Below the pieces are notes generated by a model, which had not been told where the DNA came from, made no database searches, and was given only the letters and a program-made list of their open reading frames with translations. A stretch of DNA of 64,000 nt from an uncultured Gammaproteobacteria bacterium (GTDB taxonomy: Bacteria; Patescibacteriota; Patescibacteriia; Magasanikbacterales; GWA2-37-8). This document shows positions 1,564-42,275 of this stretch, in pieces (positions within the stretch are counted from its first letter, which is position 1; each line of letters opens with the position of its first letter). The translations under genes and the position numbers were made by a program. The stretch lies in the NCBI GenBank assembly GCA_964540825.1, contig CAZINT010000003.1:83250-147249 (forward strand), written 5' to 3'.

Positions 1564-1592
1564 TTGACAAAACCCTTAAAATACCCTACTAC
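1564..1592 (+). promoter_or_regulatory. candidate sigma70 promoter of high-GC cassette A (TTGACA-17-TACTAC; weak -10)
   Basis: TTGACA at 1564-1569 sits in the same ccTTGACAaaaccc context as the promoter at 2737, but the -10 is poor. The 10-bp perfect palindrome TTCGATCGAA at 1598-1607 lies just downstream. Confidence 0.35.
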
Positions 1593-1639
1593 TAACGTTC
1601 GATCGAAAATCGATCGCCACCAAAAAAAGGAGCAGACCC

Positions 1640-2467
1640 ATGAAGTTTATCCTGCCATTGCTTACCCTCGCCATTCTGGCCGCGGGGTGCACCGAAACAC
1701 CCATCACGCAGGACCGCGGGGAGTGCCAGCTGGACTCCCAGTGCGACGACACGACCACGCAGCTGTGCATCGCACGGCAGTGCGTCGCCTTCTCCACTTG
1801 CGACGCGCCCGGTGACGTCTGCGGGGTCGGGTACGAGTGCAAGGAGAAGGTGGGGTACCTCAAGGGTGCAACGCCCTACCGGTACGTCACCCGTCTGTGC
1901 GTCCCGGCCGGCACCACGATCATGCCGCCCGTGGATCCGGGATCGGGTGACATGTCCAGCGAGATACTGGACATGCGCAGCTCAGGCACGCCCGACCTGC
2001 GGGCAATCCTGCCCGACTGTCCGGCCGGCTCCATCGACGGCACCCCTCTGTGTGGCGGCGTGCTAACCAGCACGACGTGCCAGCCGCGCACTCGCTGCGG
2101 CGATGGTCGTCACGTGAAGAGCAAGGACGACTGCTCGGCCGACGCCAACAACTTCGCGGGCGCCGAAGGGAGCGACGGCTTCTGTACCAACGCAACCGAG
2201 GCGATCATGATCCAGGTCAACCAGGCGATGGGAGGAACCAAACTCCGCATCAACGCCGCCAACACTAGCCCCGATGTACCGATCGACGGCACCGTTCAGG
2301 TCATCAAGGGTATCGGCGCTTATGGTGGACTTGTGACGGTCAGCATCGTCGACAACGGCGGCAACCCGATCCTGAACTCGACCGGCACCTGCTGGAGCGT
2401 GTCCGGAGGGACCCCGAAGAAAGGGCCCATCAGCGACATCGGCGGCGTCGCCGGGTGCAGGAAGTAA
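1640..2467 (+). CDS. Cys-rich secreted protein, probable lipoprotein (high-GC cassette A; paralog of 2933..3880)
   Basis: 275-aa ORF with an AGGAG SD 7 nt upstream and a signal peptide ending in LAAGC (lipobox-like). It has about 18 Cys, including a CGDG-x6-DDC motif, and its C-terminal ~110 aa align with the ORF at 2933. Third codon positions are strongly GC-rich. Confidence 0.6.
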   Translation: MKFILPLLTLAILAAGCTETPITQDRGECQLDSQCDDTTTQLCIARQCVAFSTCDAPGDVCGVGYECKEKVGYLKGATPYRYVTRLCVPAGTTIMPPVDPGSGDMSSEILDMRSSGTPDLRAILPDCPAGSIDGTPLCGGVLTSTTCQPRTRCGDGRHVKSKDDCSADANNFAGAEGSDGFCTNATEAIMIQVNQAMGGTKLRINAANTSPDVPIDGTVQVIKGIGAYGGLVTVSIVDNGGNPILNSTGTCWSVSGGTPKKGPISDIGGVAGCRK

Positions 2468-2469
2468 GC

Positions 2470-2586
2470 AGCCCCCACCCCCCAGCTCTCCCTCGCCTAG
2501 GGAGACAATGGCTTCCGAGCTGAAGCCTGCGGGGAGTGGTACACCATTTGTTCTTTCAGGCACGCTTTCCTCGCGTGCCACTTCCC
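2470..2586 (+). repeat. 3' structured element, copy 1 (three consecutive hairpins; repeated at 3883..3990)
   Basis: Carries ccccagcTCTCCCtcgcctaGGGAGAca, a variable middle hairpin GCTTCcgagctGAAGC, and ggggagtgg...GGCACGCtttcctcGCGTGCCacttccc. The flanks are near-identical to the copy after the paralogous gene. Confidence 0.6.
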
Positions 2587-2736
2587 AAAATATTTTTATT
2601 GGTATTCACTAGAAGTATATTGAGAAGAACTACCAACGCTTTTCACTCAAAAATGAGGCTGTGGTTTACTATAAAAATACCTAAAATAAAAAGCTGCTTA
2701 TATTAGCCAAATTTTTAGAACCACACCGAGATACTC

Positions 2737-2765
2737 TTGACAAAACCCCAAAAATGTGCTAGCAT
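2737..2765 (+). promoter_or_regulatory. sigma70 promoter TTGACA-17-TAGCAT with TGn extended -10 (cassette B)
   Basis: Read directly as TTGACAaaaccccaaaaatgtgcTAGCAT. The spacer is nearly identical to that of the promoter at 13353. Confidence 0.55.
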
Positions 2766-2932
2766 TGTTCGTTCCTGAAGTTAATCAGGAGGTTCTTTAA
2801 TAAAGCGTCTTTGGCACCAAAAAGCCTCTATTTTAGAGAAGTTTTTTAGTGTCAAAGACCAGTACCACTTTATGAGAGGTACCCCTCTCAATTGGATCCA
2901 GGCTTTCTGTCCCGCAACCAAGGAGAACGATC

Positions 2933-3880
2933 ATGACCACGAGCCGCATCCTTGCCCGCCTCGGCATCCCCGTCCTCGCCCTCACCGGCGTCCTCGGCGT
3001 CGCATGCTACCGCACCGACAAGAACTACTGCATGAGCTCGGCCGACTGCGCCGGCATGGGGGGCTACTGCTCCCTCCCCGCCCACAGTTGTCTGTCGCCG
3101 CAGTGCGACGTGAAGAGCAACAAGCTCCTGGCGCGCGACCAGACCAAGATGGGCGAGATCGTCACGACCTACAGCCCCTACAGCTGCAACCCCGGTGACG
3201 TCTGCGACTCGGTGAAGGGCCTCTGCCGGCCGCTCACCTGCGCCGACGGGATGGCCTGCCCCGACGGCTCGACCTGCAACAAGAGCAAGGGGATGTGCGA
3301 GACGATCTTCGTCCCGCCCGCGCCGGACATGGCGCAGGGCGACATGAACATCTCGCCCGACCTCGCGCCGCCCGCCGACATGACCCCGGGCGACCTGGCC
3401 GGCCTCCCGAACTGCCCCGACAAGGCGGTCAACGGCGGCCCGTCCTGCAACACGGACATCAGCGGCACCACCTGCAGGGCGGTCTTCCCGGCCTGCGGCA
3501 AGGGCTTCCGGGTCGCCAAGAAGGCGGACTGCCACACCTCGGCCCCGAATTTCGCGGGGCAGGAGGGCTCCGACGGCTTCTGCCTATCGGCCAACGCCGG
3601 GATCGAGATGCAGGTCGCCACGAAGCTCGGGGCGACCAAGCTCCAGGTGAACTCGGCGGGTGCCCCGGCCTACGAGGACATCGACGCCGGCGGCAAGCCC
3701 CAGCTCTTCGAGAGCGCCGGGGCTTACAACGGCCTGTTCTCACTCTTCCCGGTCGACGGGTCCAACAACCCCATCAACGGGACGGACGGGAACTGCTGGA
3801 TCCTCTCCTCCATCTCCGGCGCCCGGAAGACGCCGTTCACCGACCTCGGCGGCGTCAAGGGCTGCAAGATGGAGCCCTAG
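2933..3880 (+). CDS. Cys-rich secreted protein, probable lipoprotein (high-GC cassette B; paralog of 1640..2467)
   Basis: 315-aa ORF with an AAGGAG SD and a signal peptide ending in GVAC. It is Cys-rich (CGKG-x6-ADC motif) and its C-terminal domain is alignable to paralog A (DC...NFAG.EGSDGFC...GC). It has a 167-nt structured leader. Confidence 0.6.
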   Translation: MTTSRILARLGIPVLALTGVLGVACYRTDKNYCMSSADCAGMGGYCSLPAHSCLSPQCDVKSNKLLARDQTKMGEIVTTYSPYSCNPGDVCDSVKGLCRPLTCADGMACPDGSTCNKSKGMCETIFVPPAPDMAQGDMNISPDLAPPADMTPGDLAGLPNCPDKAVNGGPSCNTDISGTTCRAVFPACGKGFRVAKKADCHTSAPNFAGQEGSDGFCLSANAGIEMQVATKLGATKLQVNSAGAPAYEDIDAGGKPQLFESAGAYNGLFSLFPVDGSNNPINGTDGNCWILSSISGARKTPFTDLGGVKGCKMEP

Positions 3881-3882
3881 TC

Positions 3883-3990
3883 CACCCCAGCTCTCCCCCG
3901 CCTAGGGAGACACTAACCTCTTAAGAGAGGTCTTTGGGGAGTGGTACACATTGTTCTTTCAGGCACGCTTTCCTCGCGTGCCACTTCCCA
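3883..3990 (+). repeat. 3' structured element, copy 2
   Basis: Outer hairpins are the same as copy 1. The middle hairpin is replaced by CCTCTtaagAGAGG, a different sequence that still folds as a hairpin. Confidence 0.6.
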
Positions 3991-4078
3991 CTACTTTTTT
4001 ACCCCTCCCCGGTAGAAACGTGATAGGAAGACATGCTACCAACTCACCAAACTAAGTTTCGGCTAAGCTTAGGTAACG

Positions 4079-4107
4079 TTTGACACCTCACCCTCTGCCT
4101 GATATAC
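4079..4107 (+). promoter_or_regulatory. sigma70 promoter TTGACA-17-TATACT, probably for rny (about 255-nt leader)
   Basis: Read directly as TTGACAcctcaccctctgcctgaTATACT. Confidence 0.5.
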
Positions 4108-6298: not shown

Positions 6299-6310
6299 TC
6301 CGAAACTTAG

Positions 6311-6343: not shown

Positions 6344-6356
6344 TTACCTGAAACTA

Positions 6357-6384
6357 TTGACAAAAACGCATTTCACGCTATGAT
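6357..6384 (+). promoter_or_regulatory. sigma70 promoter TTGACA-16-TATGAT (cassette C)
   Basis: Read directly. Confidence 0.5.
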
Positions 6385-6458
6385 GCGGTTGTCGCTATGC
6401 CAAAGGTTTCAAACTACATCTTTTTGAAACTCATCAAGAACGATACTGGAGGGAAAAA

Positions 6459-7028
6459 ATGAAAACTGACATTACACTGTTAAGCACCATGCTCCGCGAA
6501 TTTGCGCTCATTGCCCTCCGCGAGCGGTGCGAAAACGGTGTCCCAGTCCGGGCCGATACGCCCAACGAGCTCATGTCCGAGTTTGCGGCGGTATGGAGCA
6601 CCCTGGACCATGGGACCTGTGACTACCGGCAGTTCTGCGAAATTTTTCAGGCGGTGGCCGAAGCCAGTCTACGTGACGAAAACCAGTGCGCCGTACTCGC
6701 GCTCACCACTCTCTCGTTCATCACCTACGTCGGTCCCAATCGAGCGCGCACCATACTCCAGGCCATCTACCGAGAAAGCCGTACCGCGAAGGCTGGCTCC
6801 TACAACCAGCTGGTCTTTTACCTCGGCGCGCTGGAAGCGATGAGTCTCGCCGGTTCACCAGTCACGATTCTCGAGTGGGGCGTGGATGAAGCGTACAAGC
6901 AGCTCGGAAACGAAGTCTCGCGTGAAAGCGTCTTCCTGAGCTTGTGGATCCAGGCACTCAGCAATCGAGCAGTAACGCTTTCCGAAGAACCCATGCCGGC
7001 CGACCGCTCCGGCGTACTCGCACTCTAA
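6459..7028 (+). CDS. hypothetical protein (GC-elevated cassette C)
   Basis: 189-aa ORF with a GGAGGG SD 6 nt upstream. The same-region ORF 6502..6843 is in another frame and has no SD. No recognisable motifs. Confidence 0.5.
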   Translation: MKTDITLLSTMLREFALIALRERCENGVPVRADTPNELMSEFAAVWSTLDHGTCDYRQFCEIFQAVAEASLRDENQCAVLALTTLSFITYVGPNRARTILQAIYRESRTAKAGSYNQLVFYLGALEAMSLAGSPVTILEWGVDEAYKQLGNEVSRESVFLSLWIQALSNRAVTLSEEPMPADRSGVLAL

Positions 7029-7172
7029 CAAACGCTGCTTGAGGCAGCTGCCGGTGGCGCCCTGTGCCACCCTGAACCAGTGATGGAAAGTTATTTTCAT
7101 TAGTGGTTCTGGCCAGATTTTTCTGACCACCTTCTTTGCCTTAAGAACAAAATTGAGTATACTGAAACAGCT

Positions 7173-7997: not shown

Positions 7998-8143
7998 ACC
8001 CTTGATTTTTTTAGGGTTTTAGTGTATACAAAATCTATATTTCAAAATTATTCAAGCTGTTTTCACCACGAGTACCGCGCTCGTCACTCTTAGAGTGGTG
8101 AGTATACGCTCTTGGGTAAATTACCCCATGCACGGAGGAAGCG

Positions 8144-8488
8144 ATGGAAAAGCAGTACATTCTGCCGCCCTCAACACCTGCGCCAACGATCCAGCGCACT
8201 GGAGGCATCATCCTGTGCATGACTGGCTGGATCGTGTTCTTGGCGGCCTTTGCCAAATTTATTGGCGTAACCGTCCTCAACCGCCAGAGCGAGCTTGGTC
8301 TGAGTCTTGACCAGCTCAAGGATGGTATGCGGCTCTGTGGCATCGGCCTGGCGTTGGGCTGCCTCGGCACCCCTCTGTGGGTCTTGGCCGAGATTAAGCT
8401 TCGGCGCCGCGCCAAGGAGGAGTCACGGCAGCCCGGGTACATCCCGCCCAACGCAGAGCTTGCTTCCACCCCCACTTCAAGCAGCTAG
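8144..8488 (+). CDS. hypothetical small membrane protein
   Basis: 114 aa with two hydrophobic helices and a GGAGG SD. Confidence 0.4.
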   Translation: MEKQYILPPSTPAPTIQRTGGIILCMTGWIVFLAAFAKFIGVTVLNRQSELGLSLDQLKDGMRLCGIGLALGCLGTPLWVLAEIKLRRRAKEESRQPGYIPPNAELASTPTSSS

Positions 8489-8693
8489 TTTTGCCACTAT
8501 TTCAACCCTGCCAGCCTCGCTGGCTCCCGGCGACGAACAGATACTTTTTGCCACTCGCAAAAACCTGTTCGTCGCCCTCAGCTCTGTAGACGTCTTCACC
8601 AAAGGCAGCCACATACTGAGACAGACAAAAATTGACACAAACCGACGCCTATGATACGCTATTGGCAGTCTGAACTATCTTCTAACCCTCATT

Positions 8694-10941: not shown

Positions 10942-10951
10942 AATCGGTCTT

Positions 10952-13203: not shown

Positions 13204-13352
13204 CGGTTTTCCACAAAAAACTTGGCTAAATGAGCCAAGTTTTTTTGTTTTTTGCATATTTTTTCCCCACACGAAAAGCATTGTTGACAGTTCAAAAATA
13301 TGCTATAGTGGCGGCATTGTGCAAAATATTTTTACTGGTACGGACAGCTATC

Positions 13353-13381
13353 TTGACAAAACACCAATTTTGTGCTAGCGT
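13353..13381 (+). promoter_or_regulatory. sigma70 promoter TTGACA-17-TAGCGT with TGn (cassette D)
   Basis: TTGACAaaacaccaattttgtgcTAGCGT, with a spacer near-identical to the promoter at 2737. Confidence 0.55.
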
Positions 13382-13480
13382 TACTATCTGCTCTTTATAT
13401 GTGTCGGGTGTGACAGTTGTAAAATAATTTTTATTTTCCAGCTATCACACTCAACACAAACTTTTTTACTGGAGGCCGTC

Positions 13481-13831
13481 ATGGCAGGTCATCGCTATAC
13501 TCGGGGCTTCCGTTTGAGCGAGCCCCTCATGAACGTGGTGCTCGATGCGCACCACCTCTTGAACGGAACGACTGAGGTGTTTCGCACCCACATGGACCGC
13601 GTTCTTGAAGCGCTGCGGGAAGGCCATCTTCACGAAGTTGATTACTTCGTGAACCAGGCGGTTGACGTGCTCAGCCAGGTTGGCCACGAGCTGTCCGATG
13701 AGCACAAGACAGAGATCGCGAACTTCGCGAACTTGGTTCGTAGCCGCGCCAAGGCCCTCGCTGCCGAGATCGAGAGCGATCTCACTGCCGAGCACCGGCC
13801 CGAACCCCTTTCTTACTACGCCCACGACTGA
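13481..13831 (+). CDS. hypothetical protein (high-GC cassette D)
   Basis: 116 aa with a GGAGG SD 7 nt upstream. The antisense ORF 13466..13894 was rejected because it has no SD or promoter. Confidence 0.5.
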   Translation: MAGHRYTRGFRLSEPLMNVVLDAHHLLNGTTEVFRTHMDRVLEALREGHLHEVDYFVNQAVDVLSQVGHELSDEHKTEIANFANLVRSRAKALAAEIESDLTAEHRPEPLSYYAHD

Positions 13832-13840
13832 CCCGCCCCA

Positions 13841-13920
13841 GGTCACCGGCCGAGCCTCATCAACTCGCCCGGTGACCGTCCTCTCAACTTTCAACAGACT
13901 TAATAGGTCTTTTTTTATTT
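13841..13920 (+). terminator. GC-rich long hairpin followed by an AT-rich intrinsic terminator
   Basis: GGTCACCGG...CCGGTGACC (9-bp stem), then AGACttaataGGTCT followed by a T7 run. Confidence 0.45.
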
Positions 13921-17188: not shown

Positions 17189-17216
17189 TTTGACTTTTTA
17201 AAAAAATATGATAGTA
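17189..17216 (+). promoter_or_regulatory. sigma70 promoter TTGACT-16-TAGTAT (cassette E)
   Basis: Read directly. The 10-bp perfect palindrome TTCCCGGGAA at 17234-17243 lies between the -10 and the SD. Confidence 0.5.
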
Positions 17217-17261
17217 TCAACTGTTTCCTGAATTCCCGGGAAACGTTAACAAGGAGGAACC

Positions 17262-18269
17262 TTGGAACCCAAAGAACAGGCCTTTCAGCTCCATCGGCGT
17301 CTTGATACCGTGCGTGGAGGAAGCGACCCGGAGTCCCGGGCCGACATCTTCCTCAGCGTCCTTGCCTCGGAAAATCTCGCTCTCATCCGGCGACTCCCCG
17401 AGCTCTGCCCGCTGTCGCCGGACGAACAATCCCTCGTGGTCGGCTGGGCTGAACAGGCCGCAGCCAGCGAGGAAGTGAGCCGGCGGGACTTCGTGTTCCA
17501 CCTACTCATCAACTGCGAGATTGAGCCGACGCTCATCCTGACGCTCCTCGAGTCGCACCAGACCTTCAGCAAAAGCGTGCTCAGCCGAATCGAAGCGACG
17601 CTTCTCACGGGAGAAGGCTCGGTCCAAGAGCGGGCTGTGACCCTGCTCAAAGAGAGCGCGGAAGAATTGCTCGGCTCGAGCGATATCAAGAAGCGCGATC
17701 GCGGCAAGCACATGCTCATCACGAGCGCCGGTGCGAGCAGCGACTGGCAGGCGCTCGCCAAGCGCCTTAGCACCAGCGACATCATCGATCTGCGTCAGCA
17801 CGTGCTTGAACGCTTTCTTGATGAATGCCGCGACATGGCGTCGGTGAACCTTTTCGCTGCGAATGTTGCCACGTGGTGTCTCGGGCAGCTGGAACGCTTC
17901 AGAAAGTGCGATCGGCAGGAGGCAACCTGGGCACACTGGGTAGTCACCTGCTACGAACACGTAGGCGATGAAGCAAAGCTCAAGAGCGCGGCGCGAGCGA
18001 TCACCAATCACTTCGGCAGGCAATTGCCGCAGTCGCTGAGCTTCCGCACGAGCAAGTACCTGCCACAGTCCAAACCGGTTAGCCAGACAAACTTTTCGTG
18101 GGAACTGCCACGAAACACTACCGCTTCCGAAAACGAGCCGACGCCCGAGTCGGTTGACGAAGCACTCCGAAACGACTGGGCCATTAGCAAAGACAACGGC
18201 AGGCAAGTCGTTCTGACGAAAACGGGAGAGAACGGCAAGCGTCGTTCCATCACCCTCTACAGGAGCTAA
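17262..18269 (+). CDS. hypothetical protein (high-GC cassette E), TTG start
   Basis: 335 aa with an AAGGAGG SD 4 nt upstream of TTG. The antisense ORFs 17285..17785 and 17502..18206 were rejected as GC-driven artefacts. Confidence 0.5.
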   Translation: MEPKEQAFQLHRRLDTVRGGSDPESRADIFLSVLASENLALIRRLPELCPLSPDEQSLVVGWAEQAAASEEVSRRDFVFHLLINCEIEPTLILTLLESHQTFSKSVLSRIEATLLTGEGSVQERAVTLLKESAEELLGSSDIKKRDRGKHMLITSAGASSDWQALAKRLSTSDIIDLRQHVLERFLDECRDMASVNLFAANVATWCLGQLERFRKCDRQEATWAHWVVTCYEHVGDEAKLKSAARAITNHFGRQLPQSLSFRTSKYLPQSKPVSQTNFSWELPRNTTASENEPTPESVDEALRNDWAISKDNGRQVVLTKTGENGKRRSITLYRS

Positions 18270-25333: not shown

Positions 25334-25354
25334 ACAAAAATCTTCTACGCAACA

Positions 25355-25388
25355 AAAACCTGCCTCAAAAGCAGGTTTTTTTGTTTTC
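25355..25388 (+). terminator. rho-independent terminator
   Basis: aaaaaCCTGCctcaaaaGCAGGttttttt. Confidence 0.6.
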
Positions 25389-25438
25389 AGCTCTTTTTAC
25401 CAAGCATCCTCAAATTTCTTTTAAAGAATAAAATACCA

Positions 25439-25467
25439 TTGACAGATCGGCCTTTTTATGCTTTGAT
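25439..25467 (+). promoter_or_regulatory. candidate sigma70 promoter TTGACA-17-TTTGAT (cassette F)
   Basis: The -35 coincides with the TTG 'start' of ORF-track entry 25439, so that start is probably spurious. Confidence 0.4.
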
Positions 25468-25543
25468 CATGTGTCTGCTTTGGCAAAGAAACCAAACAGA
25501 TACAAGCCTTCTCAACGCTACGAACGAAGTAGGTACAGCGTCA

Positions 25544-26608
25544 ATGTGTCAGTTACCGCTTCTTGAGTGCTATGGAAAATACCCAGGGCACCTCGTTGTG
25601 CCGCCAGAAACAAAATTTGGCTTTATCGGAGGAGATTGCTGGCGCCGCCTCTGCGCCACCCCTGTGTACAGCAGCATGCGTGATATGTCGCGGATGCACG
25701 AAGCAGCTAACGCGGTTGCCAGTGCAACCAACGGTGTCCCGCTCAGCATTCTGACCGTAGGCACCGGCGACGCACAACAGGAAGAGCGGTTCATCCGCTC
25801 GCTCGCCACCCGAAGCCCGATCGAGCGCATCTTGCCCCACGGCATCGATATGGCAGAAAAAATGCGCGGACTTGAACGGCTTCGCACAATTCCGGCACAG
25901 TTCACGCCGCTCGCGGTGGGAGGGAACTTCGACGACAACATCGTCCAGCGCTCGCCCTACGAAACGCCCTGGCATCCGCGCATCGAAGAAGCGTCGAATA
26001 ACCTGACCCTCAGCTTCGGCAACACCTTTGGCAACTTACGCCCCGCCAACCTTGCGCACGTGCTCGAGAAAATCCGGCTGGCCCAACAGGTGTACGCCTG
26101 GGACGAACCGAACAAACCCGGGCACCTCCTTATTGAGTGGACGGCACCCTACACGGGCGACCGTCGCCCTGGCATGACGCAGCTCGATCGGACCACAGAA
26201 ATCGGTGCTATCGAATACGAGTGGTACGAGCGGTCGGCCAGACACTTCTTCGGATTGAATAGCCATCATACAGTAAAGATCAGCTTCGAAACCTTCGGGC
26301 CTTACCCTGACGGCGGCTACGAAATTATCGGGCTGGCCAGCCCGATGGAACACCCTCAGCCGCACGAGAAAGTTATCGTGGCACACTTCCTGCGCTACAG
26401 CCCCGAAGCCATGGTGACAATGGCCCGACTCGCCGGTTTCGTTCCGGTCAACAACGCTCTTTTTCAGAACGGTCCGTCGACCATCATGATCTTTCAGACC
26501 GTTAACGCCGCCACTGCCGGGGACTCCAGCGATATCAAGTCGTCGCTGGGGCCCCGGGCCCCCATAAGCCGCCTTACCAAGCGTAAGGAATCTTCAGGGG
26601 CAGCCTAA
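25544..26608 (+). CDS. EgtD-like (Methyltransf_33-like) SAM-dependent methyltransferase, tentative (high-GC cassette F)
   Basis: ILTVGTGDA glycine motif and LSFGNTFGNLRP resemble the EgtD signature FLGSTIGNL. The start at 25544 is the first ATG downstream of the promoter and is uncertain. Confidence 0.45.
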   Translation: MCQLPLLECYGKYPGHLVVPPETKFGFIGGDCWRRLCATPVYSSMRDMSRMHEAANAVASATNGVPLSILTVGTGDAQQEERFIRSLATRSPIERILPHGIDMAEKMRGLERLRTIPAQFTPLAVGGNFDDNIVQRSPYETPWHPRIEEASNNLTLSFGNTFGNLRPANLAHVLEKIRLAQQVYAWDEPNKPGHLLIEWTAPYTGDRRPGMTQLDRTTEIGAIEYEWYERSARHFFGLNSHHTVKISFETFGPYPDGGYEIIGLASPMEHPQPHEKVIVAHFLRYSPEAMVTMARLAGFVPVNNALFQNGPSTIMIFQTVNAATAGDSSDIKSSLGPRAPISRLTKRKESSGAA

Positions 26609-26670
26609 ACGTTAATTTTCTACCTTGCATTTTTAAAGTAGATATGATTTTCTCCTGTAGGGAGGGATAC

Positions 26671-26934
26671 ATGCTCTATACACCACTTCGAATTGTGCTG
26701 GCCATCATCCTTGGCACAGCCGCCACGATCTACTACTTTTTCTGGGCTATCCGCAAGACCGATGGACCAGATGCCACGCTGACGCTGGCGTGGCTACGTC
26801 ACCAAAATTTTTCACTGCTCCTCGAACCCACGTGGTGGTGGCACAACTACGACTTTCTGCTTACCGCCCTCGCTATGGGCGCAACAGTAGCCATGCTCAT
26901 TCTTCGGGACCTTAACGTGGTTCCACCATCCTGA
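26671..26934 (+). CDS. small hypothetical membrane protein
   Basis: GGAGGG SD 4 nt upstream of ATG 26671; two TM helices. Confidence 0.45.
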   Translation: MLYTPLRIVLAIILGTAATIYYFFWAIRKTDGPDATLTLAWLRHQNFSLLLEPTWWWHNYDFLLTALAMGATVAMLILRDLNVVPPS

Positions 26935-27030
26935 ACAGCGCCGGCGTTACCCCTGAGGGTCGCCGGCGTCCTGCTTTGTACTATCAAAAAGATGTTGACA
27001 GATATATAAGAACATGCTAATATATTTATA

Positions 27031-27333
27031 TTGTATTCAAGCCCTATGACTGATCTCTGCGCAGAAATAAATCGATTTGGCAAAGGCATCGGTAACGCCA
27101 CTCGCTACCGAATTCTTGAAATACTTCTGGGTGGTCGTAAATCCGTCAATGAACTCGTGAAAATTACGGGGCTATCACAGCCGCTGGTATCGCAACATCT
27201 CAAGCAGCTCAAAAACTGCAACCTCGTTGTGGATGAACGTCGCGGCCAAGAAATCTGGTACGCTGTAAACGCCGAGTACACGCTCAAACTCCTCAAAAAA
27301 CTAGTCCACAATATTCAAAAAAATAAGAAATAA
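27031..27333 (+). CDS. ArsR/SmtB family transcriptional regulator
   Basis: RYRILEILLGGRKSVNELVKITGLSQPLVSQHLKQL winged HTH. Confidence 0.8.
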   Translation: MYSSPMTDLCAEINRFGKGIGNATRYRILEILLGGRKSVNELVKITGLSQPLVSQHLKQLKNCNLVVDERRGQEIWYAVNAEYTLKLLKKLVHNIQKNKK

Positions 27334-27353
27334 TTTATTAACACACAAAACCT

Positions 27354-27992
27354 ATGCACGCTGATGAAATTATTAAAGCCCTCAACTGGCGCTATGCCGT
27401 ACAAATTTTTGATCCCAGCAAAAAAGTAAGCGATCAGGATCTAACGACAATTCTTGAAAGCGGACGCTTGGCTCCAAGCATGCTTGGGCTTGAACCCTGG
27501 AAGTTTATTGTTGTCACTAACCCGGAAGTACGCGCCAAACTCAAGGAAGCAAGCTATGGACAACCTAAGGTAACCGACGCCAGCCACCTTATTGTTATCG
27601 CCTACCGCACTGACTACGCCGCAATCGGCCGTGATCGTGTTCAGAACGTCGCTGCTGTTCAGAATCAGTCCGTTGAATCACTGTCCGGACTCACCGGCAT
27701 GATTGAAGGGTCCATTGCCGCCCAAACACAAAGTGGCAACGTGGACAGCTGGATCCGGGCGCAAAGCTTCATTCCACTTGGAATGATGGTCGAAACCGCC
27801 GCGCTTCTTGGAGTTGATGGCGGTCCTATGGGCGGATTTAGTCCGCATGTGGTTGATGAAATTCTGGGACTTAAGGCTCAGAATTTACATGCTACCAGTA
27901 TGCTGGCTCTAGGCTACCGCGGCATTGACCCGGCGGCCGCCAGACCCAAAGTACGCCGCGCATTTGAAACGGTTGTCGAATATATTAAATAA
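27354..27992 (+). CDS. nitroreductase family protein
   Basis: Nitroreductase fold motifs (RYAVQIFDP, LAPSMLGLEPWKFIVV). Confidence 0.8.
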   Translation: MHADEIIKALNWRYAVQIFDPSKKVSDQDLTTILESGRLAPSMLGLEPWKFIVVTNPEVRAKLKEASYGQPKVTDASHLIVIAYRTDYAAIGRDRVQNVAAVQNQSVESLSGLTGMIEGSIAAQTQSGNVDSWIRAQSFIPLGMMVETAALLGVDGGPMGGFSPHVVDEILGLKAQNLHATSMLALGYRGIDPAAARPKVRRAFETVVEYIK

Positions 27993-27996
27993 TATA

Positions 27997-28030
27997 AAGG
28001 CCTTCTCGCTTGAGAAGGCCTTTTTTATTT
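27997..28030 (+). terminator. rho-independent terminator
   Basis: aaaGGCCTTCTCgcttGAGAAGGCCttttttattt. Confidence 0.6.
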
Positions 28031-28120
28031 CGAACCTGCCTTCGACCCCTACCGCTTGACAGACATTTGTAGTTAGTATATACTTGATATATCAACTATT
28101 AATCAAGTAAAGCTCCACGT

Positions 28121-30628: not shown

Positions 30629-30657
30629 TTGACAAAAACTTGTTTTTATACTATAGT
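30629..30657 (+). promoter_or_regulatory. sigma70 promoter TTGACA-17-TATAGT (cassette G)
   Basis: Read directly. Confidence 0.55.
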
Positions 30658-30730
30658 GAATTATTGATTTTTGAGTATTTTATTTTACTTCCACAGAATA
30701 AAATACTGAGGAATTTTACAGAGGTAGATA

Positions 30731-31090
30731 ATGGAAAAACTAGGTGCCCGCCCGCATCTTCGGCTGTGCCCTTCACCTGCGGAAGGTGGATCAGAGCCAC
30801 CTCGCGAACCCTCACTTGAGGTAATCGAACCGAGCTTACCACCAGGAGTGCCGCAAACCCCCTTAACCCCTCAAGAGCATTCGACGCTCATGATCATCGG
30901 CCTCAGTCTGCGGGTACGAGCATGTCTTGCCATCATACACGCAGAGATAAATCGGCCGGAGGTTACCGTTTATCCCGGAACTTCGGCTGACGAGATACAG
31001 TCTGTTATCGATCTCATGGCCGAGTACGGTTGGAAAGGAACCTACTATAGCGATAAAAAAGATATTCTCTATATCTGTAGGGTCCGCTGA
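30731..31090 (+). CDS. hypothetical protein (high-GC cassette G)
   Basis: 119 aa with a GAGGT SD. Followed by a nested GC-rich hairpin GGCAGACGcCTCCACcctGTGGAGacCCGTCTGCC at 31099-31135. Confidence 0.4.
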   Translation: MEKLGARPHLRLCPSPAEGGSEPPREPSLEVIEPSLPPGVPQTPLTPQEHSTLMIIGLSLRVRACLAIIHAEINRPEVTVYPGTSADEIQSVIDLMAEYGWKGTYYSDKKDILYICRVR

Positions 31091-31225
31091 AATTCCCCCT
31101 GGCAGACGCCTCCACCCTGTGGAGACCCGTCTGCCGCCCCCAACTATTTTCTTTCTTGATTAGAGAAAATTGAGGCGGCCAATATCCACTTGCTCTTTTT
31201 TTCAAAAGAGTTACAGTACCTCTCT

Positions 31226-31538: not shown

Positions 31539-31567
31539 TTGTCAAAAAAACTTCAAGCAGGTAGTAT
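31539..31567 (+). promoter_or_regulatory. sigma70 promoter TTGTCA-17-TAGTAT (cassette H)
   Basis: Read directly. Confidence 0.5.
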
Positions 31568-31615
31568 GGCCCCACCTCTAAACGCGCCCCCGTAAGGCGT
31601 ATAAGGAGCAGTCAC

Positions 31616-32503
31616 ATGACCCAGCGTCGCCACCTCGCCACACCCCAACCGAACCTGTTTACCGTCCGCGTGAAACGGATCGCGGCTAACATCAAGCGCT
31701 GGCTTGCCAGGCACGGTGTCACCGCGCCCGTCACAACAGCGATCACGCTCGGGAGCGGTCTCGGCGGCTACGGCTCCGACCACCCCTCGGCTATCACGAT
31801 CCCGTATGCGAAGGTCGGCCTGCCAAAGTGCGGCATGGTCGGGCACGCCGGAGTCCTCCGCTTCATGCAGGTCGGCAAGCACGGCATCCTCATCTTCGAC
31901 GGACGTGCGCACGGGTACGAAGGCTATCCGATCGAGTCCGTGGTCATGGCCGTGCGCGCTGCGGCGTTCGCGGGCGCCACGACGCAGGTCATCACCTGCG
32001 CGTCGGGCGGCATCAACCCCAACTACGTTGCCGGCCAGCTGGTGGTCATCAAAGACCACCTGAACCTGATGGGCCGGAACCCCCTCACGGGCAGGAACGA
32101 TCAGAAGCATGGACCGCGCTTCCCCGACATGACGCAAGCGTACGATCCGGAACTCCGCACCCTCGCCGGCAACGCCGGAAAGGCCATCGGTCTCACCCTC
32201 GCCGAGGGTGTTTACGCGGCGCTCAGCGGCCCCAACTACGAGACTCCGGCCGAGGTCCGCATGCTCAGCATCCTCGGCGCTGACATGGTGGGCATGTCCA
32301 CCGTGCCCGAGGTGCTCGCGCTGCGTCACCTCAGCGTCCGCGTCCTTGGCATATCGTGCATCGCCAACAAGGCCGCGAGCACCAACCAAGAGCCGCTCAG
32401 CCACGACGAAGTGGTCGCGGCCGGACGCAACGCCGCACCCCGCTTCAAGATGCTCCTCGACGGTATCGTCGAATCGCTCCCCCTCCCCGAAACCACGGCC
32501 TAA
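31616..32503 (+). CDS. purine nucleoside phosphorylase (PNP/MTAP family)
   Basis: GPNYETPAE and GADMVGMSTVPEV are hallmark PNP-I/MTAP motifs. AAGGAG SD. Strongly GC-rich relative to its neighbours. Confidence 0.8.
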   Translation: MTQRRHLATPQPNLFTVRVKRIAANIKRWLARHGVTAPVTTAITLGSGLGGYGSDHPSAITIPYAKVGLPKCGMVGHAGVLRFMQVGKHGILIFDGRAHGYEGYPIESVVMAVRAAAFAGATTQVITCASGGINPNYVAGQLVVIKDHLNLMGRNPLTGRNDQKHGPRFPDMTQAYDPELRTLAGNAGKAIGLTLAEGVYAALSGPNYETPAEVRMLSILGADMVGMSTVPEVLALRHLSVRVLGISCIANKAASTNQEPLSHDEVVAAGRNAAPRFKMLLDGIVESLPLPETTA

Positions 32504-32540
32504 ACGGCCGAACCGTTCTTAGAGTAACGCAAGGGTAGAC

Positions 32541-32613
32541 GGGCGAGTCAGCAAGATCGCCCTACTACCATATTTCGCAGCATTTCTGCTACGAAGTATG
32601 GTGGCGATCTTGC
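32541..32613 (+). promoter_or_regulatory. nested, mutually exclusive long hairpins 3' of the PNP gene
   Basis: GGGCGAgtcagcaagATCGCCC overlaps GCAAGATCGCC...ACCATATTTCG-GCAGcatttCTGC-CGAAGTATGGT...GGCGATCTTGC. Confidence 0.4.
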
Positions 32614-32628
32614 CTATATATACTTTTT

Positions 32629-32656
32629 AAAAAATCCCTATGCCGGGGATTTTTTT
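32629..32656 (+). terminator. rho-independent terminator
   Basis: aaaaaATCCCtatgccgGGGATtttttt. Confidence 0.55.
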
Positions 32657-38145: not shown

Positions 38146-38180
38146 TAAAAATTCGCTGAACAGCGAATTTTTATTTTTAA
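38146..38180. terminator. bidirectional rho-independent terminator
   Basis: aaaaATTCGCTGaaCAGCGAATttttatttttaa, between the convergent genes. Confidence 0.6.
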
Positions 38181-38265
38181 AATGCATGCAAGGTGAGCCT
38201 TAGTCTAAAGCTATTCTTGGATGCGCCGAACGGTCGAGTGACCGTTCGGGTGGTGGGGCGTTTAC

Positions 38266-38598
38266 TCAGCGGCCCGGGAACACAAGTCCCGACCGGTAGT
38301 CCTTGTACTCGATCTGGGTGCAGACCATACCATCTTCCCGGTACTTGCGGATCTCACACTTCTTCACCGCAGGAGCGGGTGAAGGGAAGCTCGGCTTGGT
38401 CGCGAAGAGTCCTGGAAGGTGGACGCCGTCGCAGATAATATGGTACTTGCCGTACCAATCCTCCTGCTGCGGTTTCTGCGGCTGAGACACGGTGGACGCA
38501 CCAGGCACCAAGCCCAAACGCTGAACCGTGCTCGGCTGCACAGAACCACAGCCTGCCAGAGAACTCATCACAAACAACCCGATTAGTGCCCGCTTCAT
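38266..38598 (-). CDS. hypothetical lipoprotein (high-GC cassette I)
   Basis: Lipobox SLAGC; 110 aa. Followed on its 3' side by the perfect hairpin CCGAACGGTCgagtGACCGTTCGG (38226-38249). Confidence 0.45.
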   Translation of the reverse strand: MKRALIGLFVMSSLAGCGSVQPSTVQRLGLVPGASTVSQPQKPQQEDWYGKYHIICDGVHLPGLFATKPSFPSPAPAVKKCEIRKYREDGMVCTQIEYKDYRSGLVFPGR

Positions 38599-38770
38599 GC
38601 TTCCATCCTCTCAAAAAAGAGCCCATCACGTACGTGCAACGCTCGTGTTTTGACACGTCGCACAATTCTCTAGAACAGATTTTGACCGTACTCCAAAAAT
38701 TGTTTTTTGTCAATTCTTCAAAGAGTCTATACCTATTTTTCGCTATACTCATCATGTCATAGTCATAATC

Positions 38771-38898: not shown

Positions 38899-38910
38899 CC
38901 ACAGTACTAA

Positions 38911-38965: not shown

Positions 38966-38979
38966 TTAATCTGCTTACC

Positions 38980-40008: not shown

Positions 40009-40046
40009 CCATTTCTTGTATTTTTAGCCTAATTAAGCCCTTTATC

Positions 40047-40075
40047 TTTACAAAAGGGCTTTTTTGTGCTATTAT
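40047..40075 (+). promoter_or_regulatory. promoter-like module TTTACA-17-TATTAT with TGn (cassette J), embedded in a hairpin AAGCCCTTT/AAAGGGCTT
   Basis: ctttatctTTACAaaagggcttttttgtgcTATTAT is about 85% identical to the module at 41457. Confidence 0.45.
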
Positions 40076-40155
40076 TTTCTGTTTATCCGTGGGTCTTTCT
40101 CTCTGCCTGCGGAAAACCTGTTCATTAACAAAAGAGAGAGACAAGGATCGCGAAC

Positions 40156-41277
40156 ATGCCGAATGGAAAAACCGATCTGCTCGCTCCGGGTGAACTGGGT
40201 GCTGTCATCGTGACAGCGCTCGGTTTCAAGAACAATCGCTCCGCAGCCGATTACCTCAAGAGTACGGAATACCAGCAGCGTTTCTCGGCGGCGTCAGACG
40301 CCTACCAGCCGATCGACTTTGGCGGCGGTACCTACGTACCGCTTTCACCCAAAAACAAAGGACCACTCGATCTCACCGGCCTCATGGAAGAGACTCGTGG
40401 CGACCAGGAGCGACCCACCTGGATCCCGCTCTTCAAAGCTGGCACGCCGAAGCCTGTCGGAGCCTACAACGTCGCTCTCGTCTGTGACGGAGCGGCGCGG
40501 TTCTACAGCCGCATCGGCGCCAACACCCGTGTGAAAGGGTGGATGTACCGCATCATCTCGGGAGAGCGCGACTGCTACGCCGTGTGGGCGCGAACCGACG
40601 GACAGCCGCTCCGCGGGGCCATGGGCAACTCGGTAGATTCGAAGCGCTTCTACGCGACGCAGTCTGCCCGCGGCCTCATCTACGCCCGCGAGGCACTCTT
40701 CGACCACGTCGGCACGATGGTGGGCTACGCCACCACCACGACGCAGATCGAGGTCCGCGTGCGCGACCAGGACCCCAAACTCTGCGACAACCTGCAGGTC
40801 TTCCGCAAGACGAGCGTCAGCTACAGCTACGACCGCGAGAAGCATGATCCGCCCCGGCTGAACGACTTCGGCCAGGTTTGGCACCCCCTCATCGAGCGTG
40901 CCTACAAATGTTTCGAGCTGTACTGCATGCCCCTGCCGGAGGAGCTACAACACCGACAGCTCTTCTTCATAGAGCAGCTCGCCAAGAGCAAGGCTGACCA
41001 GCGGACATACCCCAACTTCGACAGCAAGATCGGGAAGCTCGACTGGCAGCTAGCGCTCGACAAGGTCGACGAGCCCTGGCAGCTCAGCGTCGTGATCCGG
41101 CGTTACTGCAACAGCCGCTTCGACAGCTCCCCCTGCTGCAATGACACCACCTCCAGTCGCTGGACCAAGATGCTTAGCCAGTACGTCTGCTCCACCGAGC
41201 GTCGCACCAAGCTTCAGGAGATGGTGAACAGCTACTGCTCGGTCGTCGATAGCATGTGGAACTACAGCGGCGACTAA
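40156..41277 (+). CDS. hypothetical protein (high-GC cassette J)
   Basis: 373 aa with an AAGGA SD. GC-rich third positions. The antisense ORFs 40345..40884 and 41050..41307 were rejected. Confidence 0.5.
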   Translation: MPNGKTDLLAPGELGAVIVTALGFKNNRSAADYLKSTEYQQRFSAASDAYQPIDFGGGTYVPLSPKNKGPLDLTGLMEETRGDQERPTWIPLFKAGTPKPVGAYNVALVCDGAARFYSRIGANTRVKGWMYRIISGERDCYAVWARTDGQPLRGAMGNSVDSKRFYATQSARGLIYAREALFDHVGTMVGYATTTTQIEVRVRDQDPKLCDNLQVFRKTSVSYSYDREKHDPPRLNDFGQVWHPLIERAYKCFELYCMPLPEELQHRQLFFIEQLAKSKADQRTYPNFDSKIGKLDWQLALDKVDEPWQLSVVIRRYCNSRFDSSPCCNDTTSSRWTKMLSQYVCSTERRTKLQEMVNSYCSVVDSMWNYSGD

Positions 41278-41317
41278 CCCGCGCTCCACTAACGGTTGGT
41301 CTAACAACCAATCACCA

Positions 41318-41430
41318 CCTCTTCCAAACCCTGGGGGAGCGCACTACAGTTTTTCTAAAAATATTAGAACCACTGTAGTCTCCCCCAGATTATAAAAATA
41401 ACTCCTTTTTAGGGAGTTGTTTTTTATATA
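41318..41430 (+). repeat. 3' module copy 1: 17-bp interrupted stem CTGGGGGAG-cgc-ACTACAGT...ACTGTAGT-CTCCCCCAG plus terminator AACTCCtttttaGGGAGTT-T6
   Basis: Near-identical to 42166..42275. Confidence 0.6.
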
Positions 41431-41456
41431 CAAAAGCAACACCCGCCACCTTTATC

Positions 41457-41485
41457 TTGACAAAAGGGTTCTTTTGTGCTATACT
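41457..41485 (+). promoter_or_regulatory. sigma70 promoter TTGACA-17-TATACT with TGn (cassette K)
   Basis: ctttatcTTGACAaaagggttcttttgtgcTATACT. Confidence 0.5.
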
Positions 41486-41576
41486 CACTTGTTGTTTTGA
41501 TAGCTTTTTGTCTGCATAAATAGTGCGTATTATAAAGCTTCTCAAACTGAAGCTCACAATTGATTGGAGGACAGAG

Positions 41577-42149
41577 ATGAGTCGTCTATCCCAGAAGGCA
41601 CGTCAGCACCGCGCGAACCTTCGCGACCTCAGCGATCGTATCGCCGAAGATAATGAGGTGGACCACCGAGAAGCCGACAACACCCTCGAGGACGATGACT
41701 TCGACGACGCACCCCACCCCTTCGACAGAGCAAAGGAGCTCGTCGATTGGACTGGCCGCAAGCGGTCCGGCGACATGAAGGGCATCTCCTTCTGCGGATA
41801 CTCCACGCGAGTAATCGCCTTCGAGCTGAACCACCAGGATCGGCTCACCGAGATCGCCGAGGAGAACTACCCGGCCTCCGCCGACGAGGACCCGGATGTG
41901 CACCGCTACTACGCAGAGCATCAGCGCCAGATCGACCGAGAGCTCGACTGGCTCTGGGCCAAGCGGGGAGAGTACCGGGCGCAGGGCGCACACGAAGTCT
42001 GGGTGTACCTCAACGGCAAGAACATCGAGGACCACCCGTACCGGTCGTGGGTCCCTCGCATGCCCGGTCTCCCGGCCCAGGAAGACTCCGACTTCGACCG
42101 CCACTACCACCCGTGGGGCGGCAACCTCTACTCCTTCAGCTACGTCTAG
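41577..42149 (+). CDS. acidic hypothetical protein (high-GC cassette K)
   Basis: 190 aa from ATG 41577, with a GGAGG SD 7 nt upstream. The ORF-track start at 41523 is further upstream. The antisense ORF 41586..42281 was rejected. Confidence 0.5.
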   Translation: MSRLSQKARQHRANLRDLSDRIAEDNEVDHREADNTLEDDDFDDAPHPFDRAKELVDWTGRKRSGDMKGISFCGYSTRVIAFELNHQDRLTEIAEENYPASADEDPDVHRYYAEHQRQIDRELDWLWAKRGEYRAQGAHEVWVYLNGKNIEDHPYRSWVPRMPGLPAQEDSDFDRHYHPWGGNLYSFSYV

Positions 42150-42165
42150 CACTAGCCGAAGACCA

Positions 42166-42275
42166 TCCTCTTCCACCCTGGGGGAGCCGACTACAGTTTT
42201 TCTAAAAAATATTAGAGCCACTGTAGTCTCCCCCAGATTATAAAAACAACTCCTTTTTAGGGAGTTGTTTTTATG
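42166..42275 (+). repeat. 3' module copy 2; its terminal hairpin overlaps the last codons of dnaE on the opposite strand
   Basis: CTGGGGGAG-ccg-ACTACAGT...ACTGTAGT-CTCCCCCAG then AACTCCtttttaGGGAGTTgttttt. The dnaE stop lies at 42257-42259, inside this hairpin. Confidence 0.6.

Follow-up and report, generated by a model that had tools for sequence, protein, structure and literature searches.

The 64,000-nt window analysed here (contig CAZINT010000003.1 of GenBank assembly GCA_964540825.1, positions 83,250 to 147,249) carries a series of GC-rich genes scattered among housekeeping genes of lower GC content. On balance, we think it probable that these are about twelve small, moron-like accessory expression units ("cassettes") that sit at conserved sites, are intrinsic to their lineage and evolve fast or are replaced, rather than being fresh imports. 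The typical unit is predicted to begin with a promoter of a sigma-70-type subclass, TTGACAAAA-N13-15-TAnnnT, and an AT-rich 5′ untranslated region (5′UTR) of 40–165 nt with a Shine-Dalgarno sequence, and to continue with one GC-rich (third-position C-rich) open reading frame (ORF), usually an orphan, a GC-rich stem-loop and finally an AT-rich intrinsic terminator. The regulatory frame would be held fixed between the housekeeping genes by purifying selection while the coding part is renewed extremely quickly: certain ORFs appear to diverge almost unconstrained (ratio of nonsynonymous to synonymous differences, pN/pS, 0.4–1.0), others to be swapped for unrelated GC-rich ORFs, and whole units to be duplicated or inserted in tandem (P-A-T-P-B-T, where P and T are the flanking promoter and terminator elements). 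The initial annotation of this stretch had described autonomous, compositionally distinct expression units, a description borne out by the GC step, the predicted promoters and the 3′ ends.

Searching representative genomes with the DnaE protein (42257–45796, minus strand) placed the window in Candidatus Magasanikbacteria, within the candidate phyla radiation (CPR, or Patescibacteria); a CPR host had been raised as a possibility, and the host is indeed a CPR bacterium, although it is not one of the Saccharibacteria. Our site comparisons, which cover all units except c17262 (for which there was no comparator locus), rely on two relatives: a sister genome (GCA_964510495.1, DnaE 97% identical at the amino acid level; loci L001, L081 and L090) and an outgroup (GCA_964634875.1, DnaE 95% identical; loci L049 and L088). 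The backbone, whose nucleotide identity to both relatives is ~70–83%, consists of housekeeping genes (infB, rny, HU, secG, SBP, rnj, lexA, tsaD, dnaE, pheST, rseP-like and clpC), and its gene order is kept in synteny across Magasanikbacteria.

GC content at third codon positions (GC3) is 0.469 ± 0.052 in the backbone (33 genes; maximum 0.57). Of the eleven ORFs that had been singled out as GC-rich, ten do show the step at their boundaries, with values of 0.69–0.97 that lie 4–10 standard deviations above the backbone: 0.84 for c1640, 0.97 for c2933, 0.69 for c6459, 0.73 for c13481, 0.73 for c17262, 0.70 for c25544, 0.85 for c31616 (a purine nucleoside phosphorylase gene, PNP), 0.71 for c38598 (minus strand), 0.81 for c40156 and 0.83 for c41577. 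The eleventh, c30731, has a GC3 of 0.49, and a twelfth GC-rich unit, w8144 (8144–8488, GC3 0.74), had been overlooked. The distribution of GC3 is bimodal, cassettes against backbone. By position, GC content is 0.24–0.48 in the last 100 nt of the 5′UTR, 0.48–0.70 in the first 90 nt of the coding sequence (CDS) and, in 10 of the 12 units, 0.50–0.68 in the first 60 nt past the stop codon, after which it drops to ~0.35. Because GC3 far exceeds GC at second positions in the GC-rich ORFs, we regard them as genuine coding frames; codon-position GC favours the annotated strands (c13481 being ambiguous on composition alone), and the antisense ORFs of the cassettes had no Pfam match. Intermediate GC3 values were seen in marR (28121–28546, 0.67) and in the ORF at 26644–26934 (0.62); since marR is conserved (87% amino acid identity in L081), the GC3 classes are not perfectly discrete.

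Promoter-like sites precede about 10 of the 11 originally listed ORFs, as had been claimed, but a strong promoter alone is not specific to the cassettes: near-consensus TTGACA-17-TAnnnT sequences are also found upstream of backbone rny, tRNA-Glu, marR and clpC. What is specific is the extended −35 element TTGACAAAA combined with a long 5′UTR. All seven TTGACAAAA 9-mers on the two strands of the window sit 76–196 nt upstream of cassette start codons, and variants of the element occur at c40156 (TTTACAAAA) and at PNP (TTGTCAAAA). The promoter-to-start distance is likewise 76–196 nt for cassettes as compared with 36–65 nt for backbone genes other than rny (~270 nt), and the backbone promoters have different bases after the −35 hexamer, with a near match only at an SH3-domain gene. 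In the window and the two relatives together, 14 TTGACAAAA-N13-15-TAnnnT sites show a mean downstream GC excess of +0.126, versus −0.013 for 31 other TTGACN promoter-like sites (p = 1.4e-6), in a comparison that counts orthologous sites and duplicated promoters repeatedly. More distant Magasanikbacteria, too, have GC-rich ORFs behind promoters of a similar type, and there the association between the TTGACAAAA promoter and GC is weaker (p = 0.02; clear cases at L008, L017, L027, L028, L044 and L046). Past the promoter we found no common 5′UTR motif, and an Rfam search of the window with gathering and E-value thresholds returned three tRNAs only, with no match in the UTRs or hairpins.

The 3′ hairpins that had been described for most units are present in 8 of the 12 (z = −3.9 to −8.2, the lowest value being that of c41577), weaker at c1640 and c2933, and absent at c17262 and c25544. 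The hairpins exceed the 3′ ends of backbone genes in GC (0.55 vs 0.375, p = 3e-4), and those of different units have no common sequence or architecture. The c38598 hairpin is kept in all three genomes, with one compensatory pair, and the 3′ elements of c1640 and c2933 are 78–92% identical to each other, with compensatory changes in the stem.

When the same sites are compared with the two relatives, the alignment gaps correspond to the cassette coding sequences at every comparable site, and the cassette promoters, 5′UTRs and AT-rich terminators align at 70–90%. Synonymous sites of the backbone are saturated in these comparisons (synonymous differences per site, pS, 0.55–0.78), which implies that the aligned non-coding frames are under purifying selection. 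In a three-way alignment of c13481, conservation of the 5′UTR extends as far as the start codon, and the sequences are homologous again from the terminator before the tRNA-Glu promoter. A blastn alignment of c30731 with L081 ends at 30738, 7 nt into the ORF, and returns at 31096, 6 nt after its stop; the flanks are 81–83% identical at the nucleotide level and the L081 ortholog 32–37% at the protein level. At c38598 the alignment ends 15 nt past the stop codon and is taken up again within the ORF, 8 nt from its 5′ end.

The occupants of these sites in the relatives are themselves GC-rich (GC3 0.60–0.93). Recognisable same-site homologs were found for PNP (whose L081 counterpart is 85% identical, with GC at fourfold-degenerate sites, GC4, of 0.83–0.87) and, in more diverged form, for c30731, for c41577 (44%, N-terminal part only) and for the c1640/c2933 family, whose member L088_2308 (2308–3561, at the c2933 site, GC3 0.93) is 32–36% identical. 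Homologous cassette pairs have nonsynonymous distances (dN) of 0.3–0.9 and pN/pS of 0.42–0.99, while dN for backbone genes is 0.02–0.18. By BLAST, permutation z-score and six-frame tblastx the occupants are unrelated at the c13481, c38598, c6459, c25544 and c1640 sites, each of which combines the same locus and conserved flanks with non-homologous content between genomes of ~80% average nucleotide identity, as a replacement islet does. Examples include a GC-rich lipoprotein ORF at the c1640 site in L088, a 395-aa ORF (GC3 0.84) at the c6459 site in L088/L089, and the islet at 25337..28048, the whole of which is replaced in L081 by one 480-aa sigma-like ORF (GC3 0.63). The tblastx comparison revealed no hidden inversion or frameshift homology between occupants other than a weak out-of-frame match in the C-terminus of c41577.

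Three sites allow the change to be placed on a lineage. At the c13481 site the ORFs of L090 and L088 are 60% identical to one another and unrelated to the window ORF; at the c38598 site the same is true of the GC-rich lipoprotein ORFs of L081 and L049 (42%); and at the w8144 site the GC-rich ORFs L090 104–586 and L088 9049–9525 are 55% identical to one another and borderline relative to the window (z ~2). Because the sister and the outgroup share these 42–60% homologs, the alignments suggest that the window's lineage has seen either replacement or a burst of divergence. Other units differ by presence: L049 lacks c41577, c30731 and PNP, c40156 is missing from L001 as well as from L049, and both of these loci hold GC-rich ORFs at places where the window has none. 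The comparison of orthologous loci proposed in the initial annotation thus reveals units that vary between related genomes.

The GC-richness seems to be a stationary property of this gene class rather than the remnant of a high-GC donor. Between the window and L081, 38% of the fourfold sites of PNP differ (p4 = 0.38), with GC4 of 0.87 and 0.83, and the trio c1640, c2933 and L088_2308 has saturated synonymous sites (pS 0.52–0.56) yet GC3 of 0.84–0.97. Because GC3 of 0.7–0.97 is kept despite such saturation, the composition must be stationary and not that of a decaying import: GC-richness persists across 0.5–1 or more synonymous substitutions per site, and an amelioration estimate, albeit a rough two-state one at near-saturated sites, needs an ancestral GC above 1. 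Cassette codon preferences (CTC>CTG, AGC, CGC, GGC) are consistent across cassettes in several genomes, and the ratio C/(C+G) in cassettes correlates with that in the backbone (r = 0.83 over just eight fourfold codon boxes), suggesting that the cassettes follow the native codon choice, shifted toward GC.

Several simpler causes were considered and rejected. Translational selection is a poor explanation for the high GC3, as HU, presumed to be highly expressed, uses AT-ending fourfold codons (GC4 0.32–0.43). Relaxed constraint alone also fails, as backbone genes with 74–81% amino acid identity have ordinary GC; because such fast-evolving backbone genes are not GC-rich, the cassettes form a discrete class. 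Nor are GC-rich gaps a universal trait of Magasanikbacteria: 77 variable gaps had a mean GC difference of −0.013, with 15 of them more than 0.03 above backbone GC and 27 more than 0.03 below. In a survey of 92 loci, 54 ORFs exceeded the GC of their own locus by 10 points or more, and ~80% of the 50 that were scanned lacked a Pfam domain. Prokaryotic orphans normally match the GC of their genome (0.45 vs 0.46, rho 0.96), with phage-like ones lower (PMC11293555), which makes the cassette pattern atypical of orphans; our literature searches found no description of it. We also noted that the window exceeds the sister genome (L081 and L001) in fourfold-site GC by 0.07–0.14 in 10 of 15 backbone genes, among them pheT, msrB, ada and 33276–34475, with three about equal and grx lower, so that backbone composition appears to be shifting within the clade.

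As for mechanism, turnover would on this reading proceed through homologous recombination, both in the conserved flanks and in the P/T repeats, drawing on allele diversity at the population level, and would be driven by diversifying selection on proteins that meet the host or phage; the lipoprotein and membrane products are consistent with an epibiont whose cell surface is under diversifying selection. The GC-richness would have to be upheld by a force specific to the locus or the class, candidates being GC-biased gene conversion at recombination-prone loci and selection on the mRNA.

A number of points weigh against replaceable, lineage-intrinsic units. Besides the repeated counting in the promoter statistics, the few codon boxes and the roughness of the amelioration estimate mentioned above, GC-biased conversion cannot act inside non-homologous alleles, and the class is not uniform, with c30731 at ordinary GC3 and c17262 and c25544 without TTGACAAAA promoter or 3′ hairpin. 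Given saturated synonymous distances (dS), the "unrelated" occupants could be orthologs diverged past detection, and their similar lengths and common lipoprotein or transmembrane (TM) character fit such undetected orthology. Finally, for four gene calls in other genomes (L088 2299–2874(−), 3673–4284(−) and 6860–7918(−), and L084 4945–5880(+)) GC at first positions of the called frame is 0.82–0.89, and the opposite strand has GC3 of 0.84–0.93; gene calling appears to have assigned these cassettes to the wrong strand. The translations held for this class in protein databases are therefore probably incorrect, so that its members look more orphan than they are, which weakens the orphan argument with regard to relatives within the lineage, though not with regard to high-GC donors.

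A more ambitious version of the same idea, which we raise only tentatively, is a dedicated, co-regulated "expression-site" system, in which class promoter, long 5′UTR and terminator would form fixed sites (the promoters often with an A4-6/T4-6 palindrome in the TTGACAAAA-N13-15-TAnnnT spacer), GC-rich ORF or ORF-plus-hairpin modules would be swapped, duplicated and diversified, and the GC/C3 composition would be actively maintained, for example by biased conversion or repair or by selection on the mRNA. Such a system, if real, would supply a hypervariable repertoire of surface or effector proteins for an epibiotic lifestyle. To our knowledge nothing of the kind has been described so far.

Evolution purely in situ, in which weakly constrained orthologous orphans undergo no exchange and GC-biased mutation or repair becomes visible where selection is relaxed, seems to us unlikely. 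The high dN and pN/pS of the homologous pairs, the lengths and lipoprotein or TM character kept across unrelated occupants, and the window's backbone GC4 of ~0.1 above its sister, indicative of a shifting clade composition, all speak for it. It would, however, require a lineage-specific burst at the three sites where sister and outgroup remain 42–60% identical and the window occupant is unrecognisable, it leaves the bimodal GC3 and the ordinary GC of fast-evolving backbone genes unaccounted for, and it does not suit c40156, which is a clean, repeat-bounded gain or loss. GC-rich ORFs also occur where backbone GC3 is 0.27–0.33 (L009 and L084, from Magasanikbacteria or CPR-like sources), making GC-biased mutation implausible there.

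The initial annotation had offered repeated acquisition from high-GC donors as one of two readings, with the host as an attractive source if the bacterium were a CPR-type epibiont. We consider repeated recent horizontal gene transfer (HGT) from high-GC donors such as the epibiont's host, with each ORF and the donor's GC-rich hairpin/terminator landing behind a resident promoter, unlikely. It would explain why the sharp GC steps take in the 3′ hairpin and why units are present in one relative and absent in another, about 10 of the 50 scanned GC-rich ORFs at other CPR loci carry ordinary accessory domains, and HGT has been reported to be common in Patescibacteria (PMC12455944). On the other hand, the relatives carry GC-rich genes at the same sites, with conserved flanks, synteny, promoters and UTRs, which is the reverse of what recent arrival predicts, and the orphans tested had no donor homologs in very large databases: 5.8e9 protein clusters contained no relative of c2933, a profile built from c1640 and c2933 retrieved only the two query proteins from 1.84e9 representatives scanned with HMMER, and c40156, c17262, c6459 and the c1640 family had no relatives in JGI metagenome or IMG/VR contigs. 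Together with the absence of GC3 decay over saturated synonymous divergence, this counts against recent xenologs, as do codon preferences like those of the backbone and a common promoter subclass that is hard to square with random insertion. The preference CTC>CTG also seems, as far as we know, atypical of high-GC phyla.

PNP is the only cargo with outside relatives, of which the nearest named ones, at ~50% identity, are assigned to Acidobacteriia and Haliangiales. Among those outside relatives, the closer matches that we checked (54–59% identity) lie in low-GC contigs that are CPR-like in composition and gene content, and the gene is well above its contig in GC in L084 (0.75 vs 0.30) and L086 (0.64 vs 0.40), compared with 0.41 vs 0.38 in L087; an exact look-up of the window's PNP sequence gave no record. 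PNP may be an old transfer, and there too the GC excess persists across deep divergence. The gene is followed in L084 (6829–6905) and L086 (6913–6990) by a near-identical stem-loop of ~75 nt (~5 differences) even though the two PNP proteins are only 62% identical, so that the 3′ element is better conserved than the gene; L087 lacks the element.

Two tandem pairs bear on how units multiply. The c1640 and c2933 proteins are paralogs (41% amino acid identity) with similar promoters. Those of c40156 and c41577 are unrelated, yet both genes are flanked by like elements: P1 and P2, a 34-bp terminator/promoter composite, are 91% identical, and T1 and T2, a hairpin-terminator of ~100 nt, are 93% identical. 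In L001 the c41577 ortholog is 44% identical over the N-terminal 115 aa, with P and the 5′UTR 90% and T 91% identical, and at c40156 the window is 1410 bp longer than L001, the additional sequence being bounded by the 34-bp direct repeat of P and having its own T. This is the product to be expected from recombination between P or T repeats, and it may have arisen by tandem duplication or when a circle released from a P-A-T-P array became integrated.

The undescribed cassette system that had been suggested therefore survives in a weak form, of fixed sites, a class-specific promoter and P/T repeats at c40156, and not in the strong form, since neither attC-like sites in the window nor a recombinase among the scanned ORFs came to light. 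We judge a dedicated site-specific system (integron-like or IS200/605-PATE-like), with a recombinase encoded elsewhere and the hairpins or the P palindrome as sites, quite improbable. The modularity of ORF plus hairpin, the tandem P-A-T-P-B-T architecture found twice, the two units that abut tRNA genes, and an inverted repeat, GCCCTTT-N9-AAAGGGC, within the 34-bp direct repeat bounding the c40156 insertion would all suit such a system. Against this, a search for RYYYAAC-N35-130-GTTRRRY had 0 matches on either strand of the window, neither an integrase nor a transposase, Y1 transposases included, turned up in the set of backbone ORFs scanned (in keeping with the lack of mobility genes reported earlier), the units are scattered with a promoter each, their hairpins have nothing in common, and at several sites the hairpin is part of the conserved frame rather than of the variable part. 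A diversity-generating retroelement fares no better: the window contains no repeats resembling a template/variable pair (TR/VR), no reverse transcriptase was found among the scanned ORFs, and variation covers the whole CDS, contrary to the C-terminal VR of such an element.

That chimeric co-assembly or mis-binning inserted GC-rich fragments of other organisms is barely credible: although the source is a metagenome assembly and the relatives are co-assembled metagenome-assembled genomes (MAGs), Logan contigs from a single run (SRR11567520) are 100% identical to the window over 5229–10986 and 38843–45277, so the junctions therein are not co-assembly chimeras (at the c6459 site the Logan contig identical to the window is L092), like architecture is found in the two other MAGs and their Logan contigs, and the GC steps fall at start codons and hairpins.

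Several known systems resemble the cassettes in part. Morons are autonomous promoter-gene-terminator units between phage genes, with deviant base composition. The cassettes resemble the phage morons of Hendrix/Juhala in being single genes with a predicted sigma-70-type promoter and terminator of their own, placed between conserved genes, deviating from their neighbours in composition, and present or absent between relatives. Unlike morons, they lie in a housekeeping chromosome (infB, rny, rnj, tsaD, dnaE, pheST, clpC) rather than a prophage, at conserved sites, with conserved regulatory frames and a common promoter subclass; a PHROGs search of the cassettes gave one marginal signal-peptide match only, and the four cassettes searched against IMG/VR had no relatives there. 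Replacement-type flexible genomic islets (Rodriguez-Valera and López-Pérez) share the arrangement of unrelated or diverged occupants at the same site between conserved flanks, as well as the enrichment in lipoprotein and membrane products, cell-surface genes being frequent in such islets. The cassettes differ in being single genes of 0.4–1.3 kb that break at the start codon, with promoter and 5′UTR in common, and in having uniformly GC-rich occupants rather than AT-rich or host-like ones.

Integron cassettes and CALINs likewise have an ORF followed by an imperfect palindrome and an accessory, often orphan cargo, but our units have no attC cores, intI or array, and are scattered over 40 kb with a promoter each. 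A classical genomic island (integrase, tRNA repeats, >10 kb) is a still poorer match to units of 0.5–1.4 kb for which no integrase was found; two of them stand beside tRNA-Glu and tRNA-Met, yet there are no tRNA-derived repeats. Bacterial ORFans are alike in being short, fast-evolving and without detectable homologs, with non-optimal codons, and unlike in that cassette GC3 is 0.2–0.5 above the genome. Host-derived genes have been reported in CPR pairs of the Saccharibacteria/Actinobacteria type. Host-to-epibiont transfer of this kind would share with the cassettes the CPR recipient, the GC above backbone and, in PNP, a salvage function useful to an auxotroph; the contrast lies in our failure to find a donor, in the stationary composition and in the conserved sites.

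CPR genomes are small and streamlined, and little is known about how their host- or phage-facing proteins vary. If our preferred reading of replaceable, lineage-intrinsic units is correct, there is a signature of a fast-turnover gene class that can be read from sequence (GC3 jump, TTGACAAAA promoter, long 5′UTR and GC-rich hairpin), that recurs in two related genomes and that points to candidate host-interaction genes. Because the GC-rich state is stationary here, even a strongly deviating composition is not necessarily a sign of recent HGT, which raises the testable question of locus-specific GC-biased forces in bacteria. There is also an annotation problem, in that wrong-strand calls leave several of these genes missing or garbled in protein databases.

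The individual units are as follows. On the plus strand, c1640 (1564..2598) has its TTGACAAAA promoter at 1564–1592, a CDS for a 275-aa Cys-rich lipoprotein at 1640–2467 and a GC-rich, structured 3′ element at 2475–2598; c2933 (2737..4001) has a promoter at 2737–2765, a 5′UTR of ~165 nt, a CDS at 2933–3880 (315 aa) and a 3′ element at 3882–4001. In c6459 (6357..7113, plus strand) the promoter is at 6357–6384, the CDS at 6459–7028 (189 aa) and the 3′ hairpins at 7034–7113 (z = −5.8), and in w8144 (7999..8576, plus strand) a promoter/terminator composite at ~7999–8030 precedes the CDS at 8144–8488 (114 aa, two TM segments as read by eye) and hairpins at 8510–8576 (z = −6.7). The c13481 unit (13284..13918, plus strand) comprises a TTGACAAAA promoter at 13353–13381, a CDS at 13481–13831 (116 aa), a GC hairpin at 13841–13877 and an AT-rich terminator at 13896–13918, right before the tRNA-Glu promoter. 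About 45 nt upstream of its promoter lies a second near-consensus promoter, TTGACAGTTCAAAAATATGCTATAGT (13284–13309), that is more conserved than its surroundings in the three genomes and could be a tandem promoter or drive a short RNA.

The remaining plus-strand units include two that depart from the general plan. In c17262 (17190..18269) a promoter TTGACT-16-TAGTAT at 17190–17217 precedes a CDS at 17262–18269 (335 aa), and there is no GC-rich 3′ hairpin; of the two TTG starts that had been proposed, that of c17262 is plausible, whereas the TTG at 25439 is the −35 hexamer itself. The variable 2.7-kb islet (25337..28048) contains c25544 (25544–26608), the ORF at 26644/26671–26934 (GC3 0.62), arsR (27031–27333) and a nitroreductase gene (27354–27992). 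The monocistronic character ascribed to the units does not extend to c25544, as the next ORF starts 36–63 nt on with no terminator between, and the two are probably co-transcribed. In c30731 (30629..31136) the promoter is at 30629–30657, the CDS at 30731–31090 (119 aa) and the hairpin at 31100–31136; in PNP (31539..32656) the TTGTCAAAA promoter is at 31539–31567, the CDS at 31616–32503, a long hairpin at 32551–32613 and the terminator at 32630–32656. The tandem pair consists of c40156 (40039..41426), with P1 at 40039–40075, a CDS at 40156–41277 (373 aa) and T1, a long hairpin plus terminator, at 41317–41426, and c41577 (41449..42275), with P2 at 41449–41485, a CDS at 41577–42149 (190 aa) and T2 at 42167–42275; judged from its position, T2 appears to act as terminator for the convergent dnaE as well. 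The one minus-strand unit, c38598 (38146..38713), has its promoter at 38713–38685, a CDS for a 110-aa lipoprotein at 38598–38266, a hairpin at 38249–38226 and a terminator at 38180–38146, and adjoins tRNA-Met (38822–38898).

Few of the products can be named. Two cargos had been recognised at the outset, of which PNP is firm: c31616 is a purine nucleoside phosphorylase of the trimeric type (NF006054, 302.5 bits, cut-off 218; PF01048, 145 bits; PNPs in the PDB, E = 3e-63). The other, an EgtD-like methyltransferase in c25544, depends on a weak Methyltransf_33 match (24.2 bits, cut-off 23) covering only profile positions 25–166 of 304, with no NCBIfam or PDB match. Searches of the cassette proteins against Pfam, NCBIfam, PHROGs and PADLOC yielded only PNP, this borderline methyltransferase and a marginal spanin match that reflects a signal peptide. 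Read by eye, c1640 and c38598 encode lipoproteins, c2933 probably does too, and so do most ORFs at the corresponding sites of the relatives; other cassette products are apparent membrane proteins. AlphaFold2 models of c2933 (with c1640; pLDDT 41.7) and c40156 (pLDDT 36.5) were too poor for use.

Beyond the window, the convergent dnaE–tsaD gap ranges from ~60 bp to 5 kb across Magasanikbacteria (L002–L048), several other gaps vary likewise, and identical intergenic positions, in this gap and its neighbours, serve repeatedly as insertion sites. Between tRNA-Met and tsaD the window has a 23-nt inverted repeat (38908–38968, 96% complementary) that is probably a tRNA terminator. Two proteins with a Peptidase_C39 domain, known from bacteriocin-processing peptidases, are encoded at 52990–53502 and 61565–62722, one of them with an additional weak match to a T4SS pilin, and genes for secreted-peptide or pilin processing may lie nearby. 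The thioredoxin-domain gene at 35741–36367 holds three copies of a 21-nt repeat, AGACACCATGATGAAAGATGA (35923–36021).

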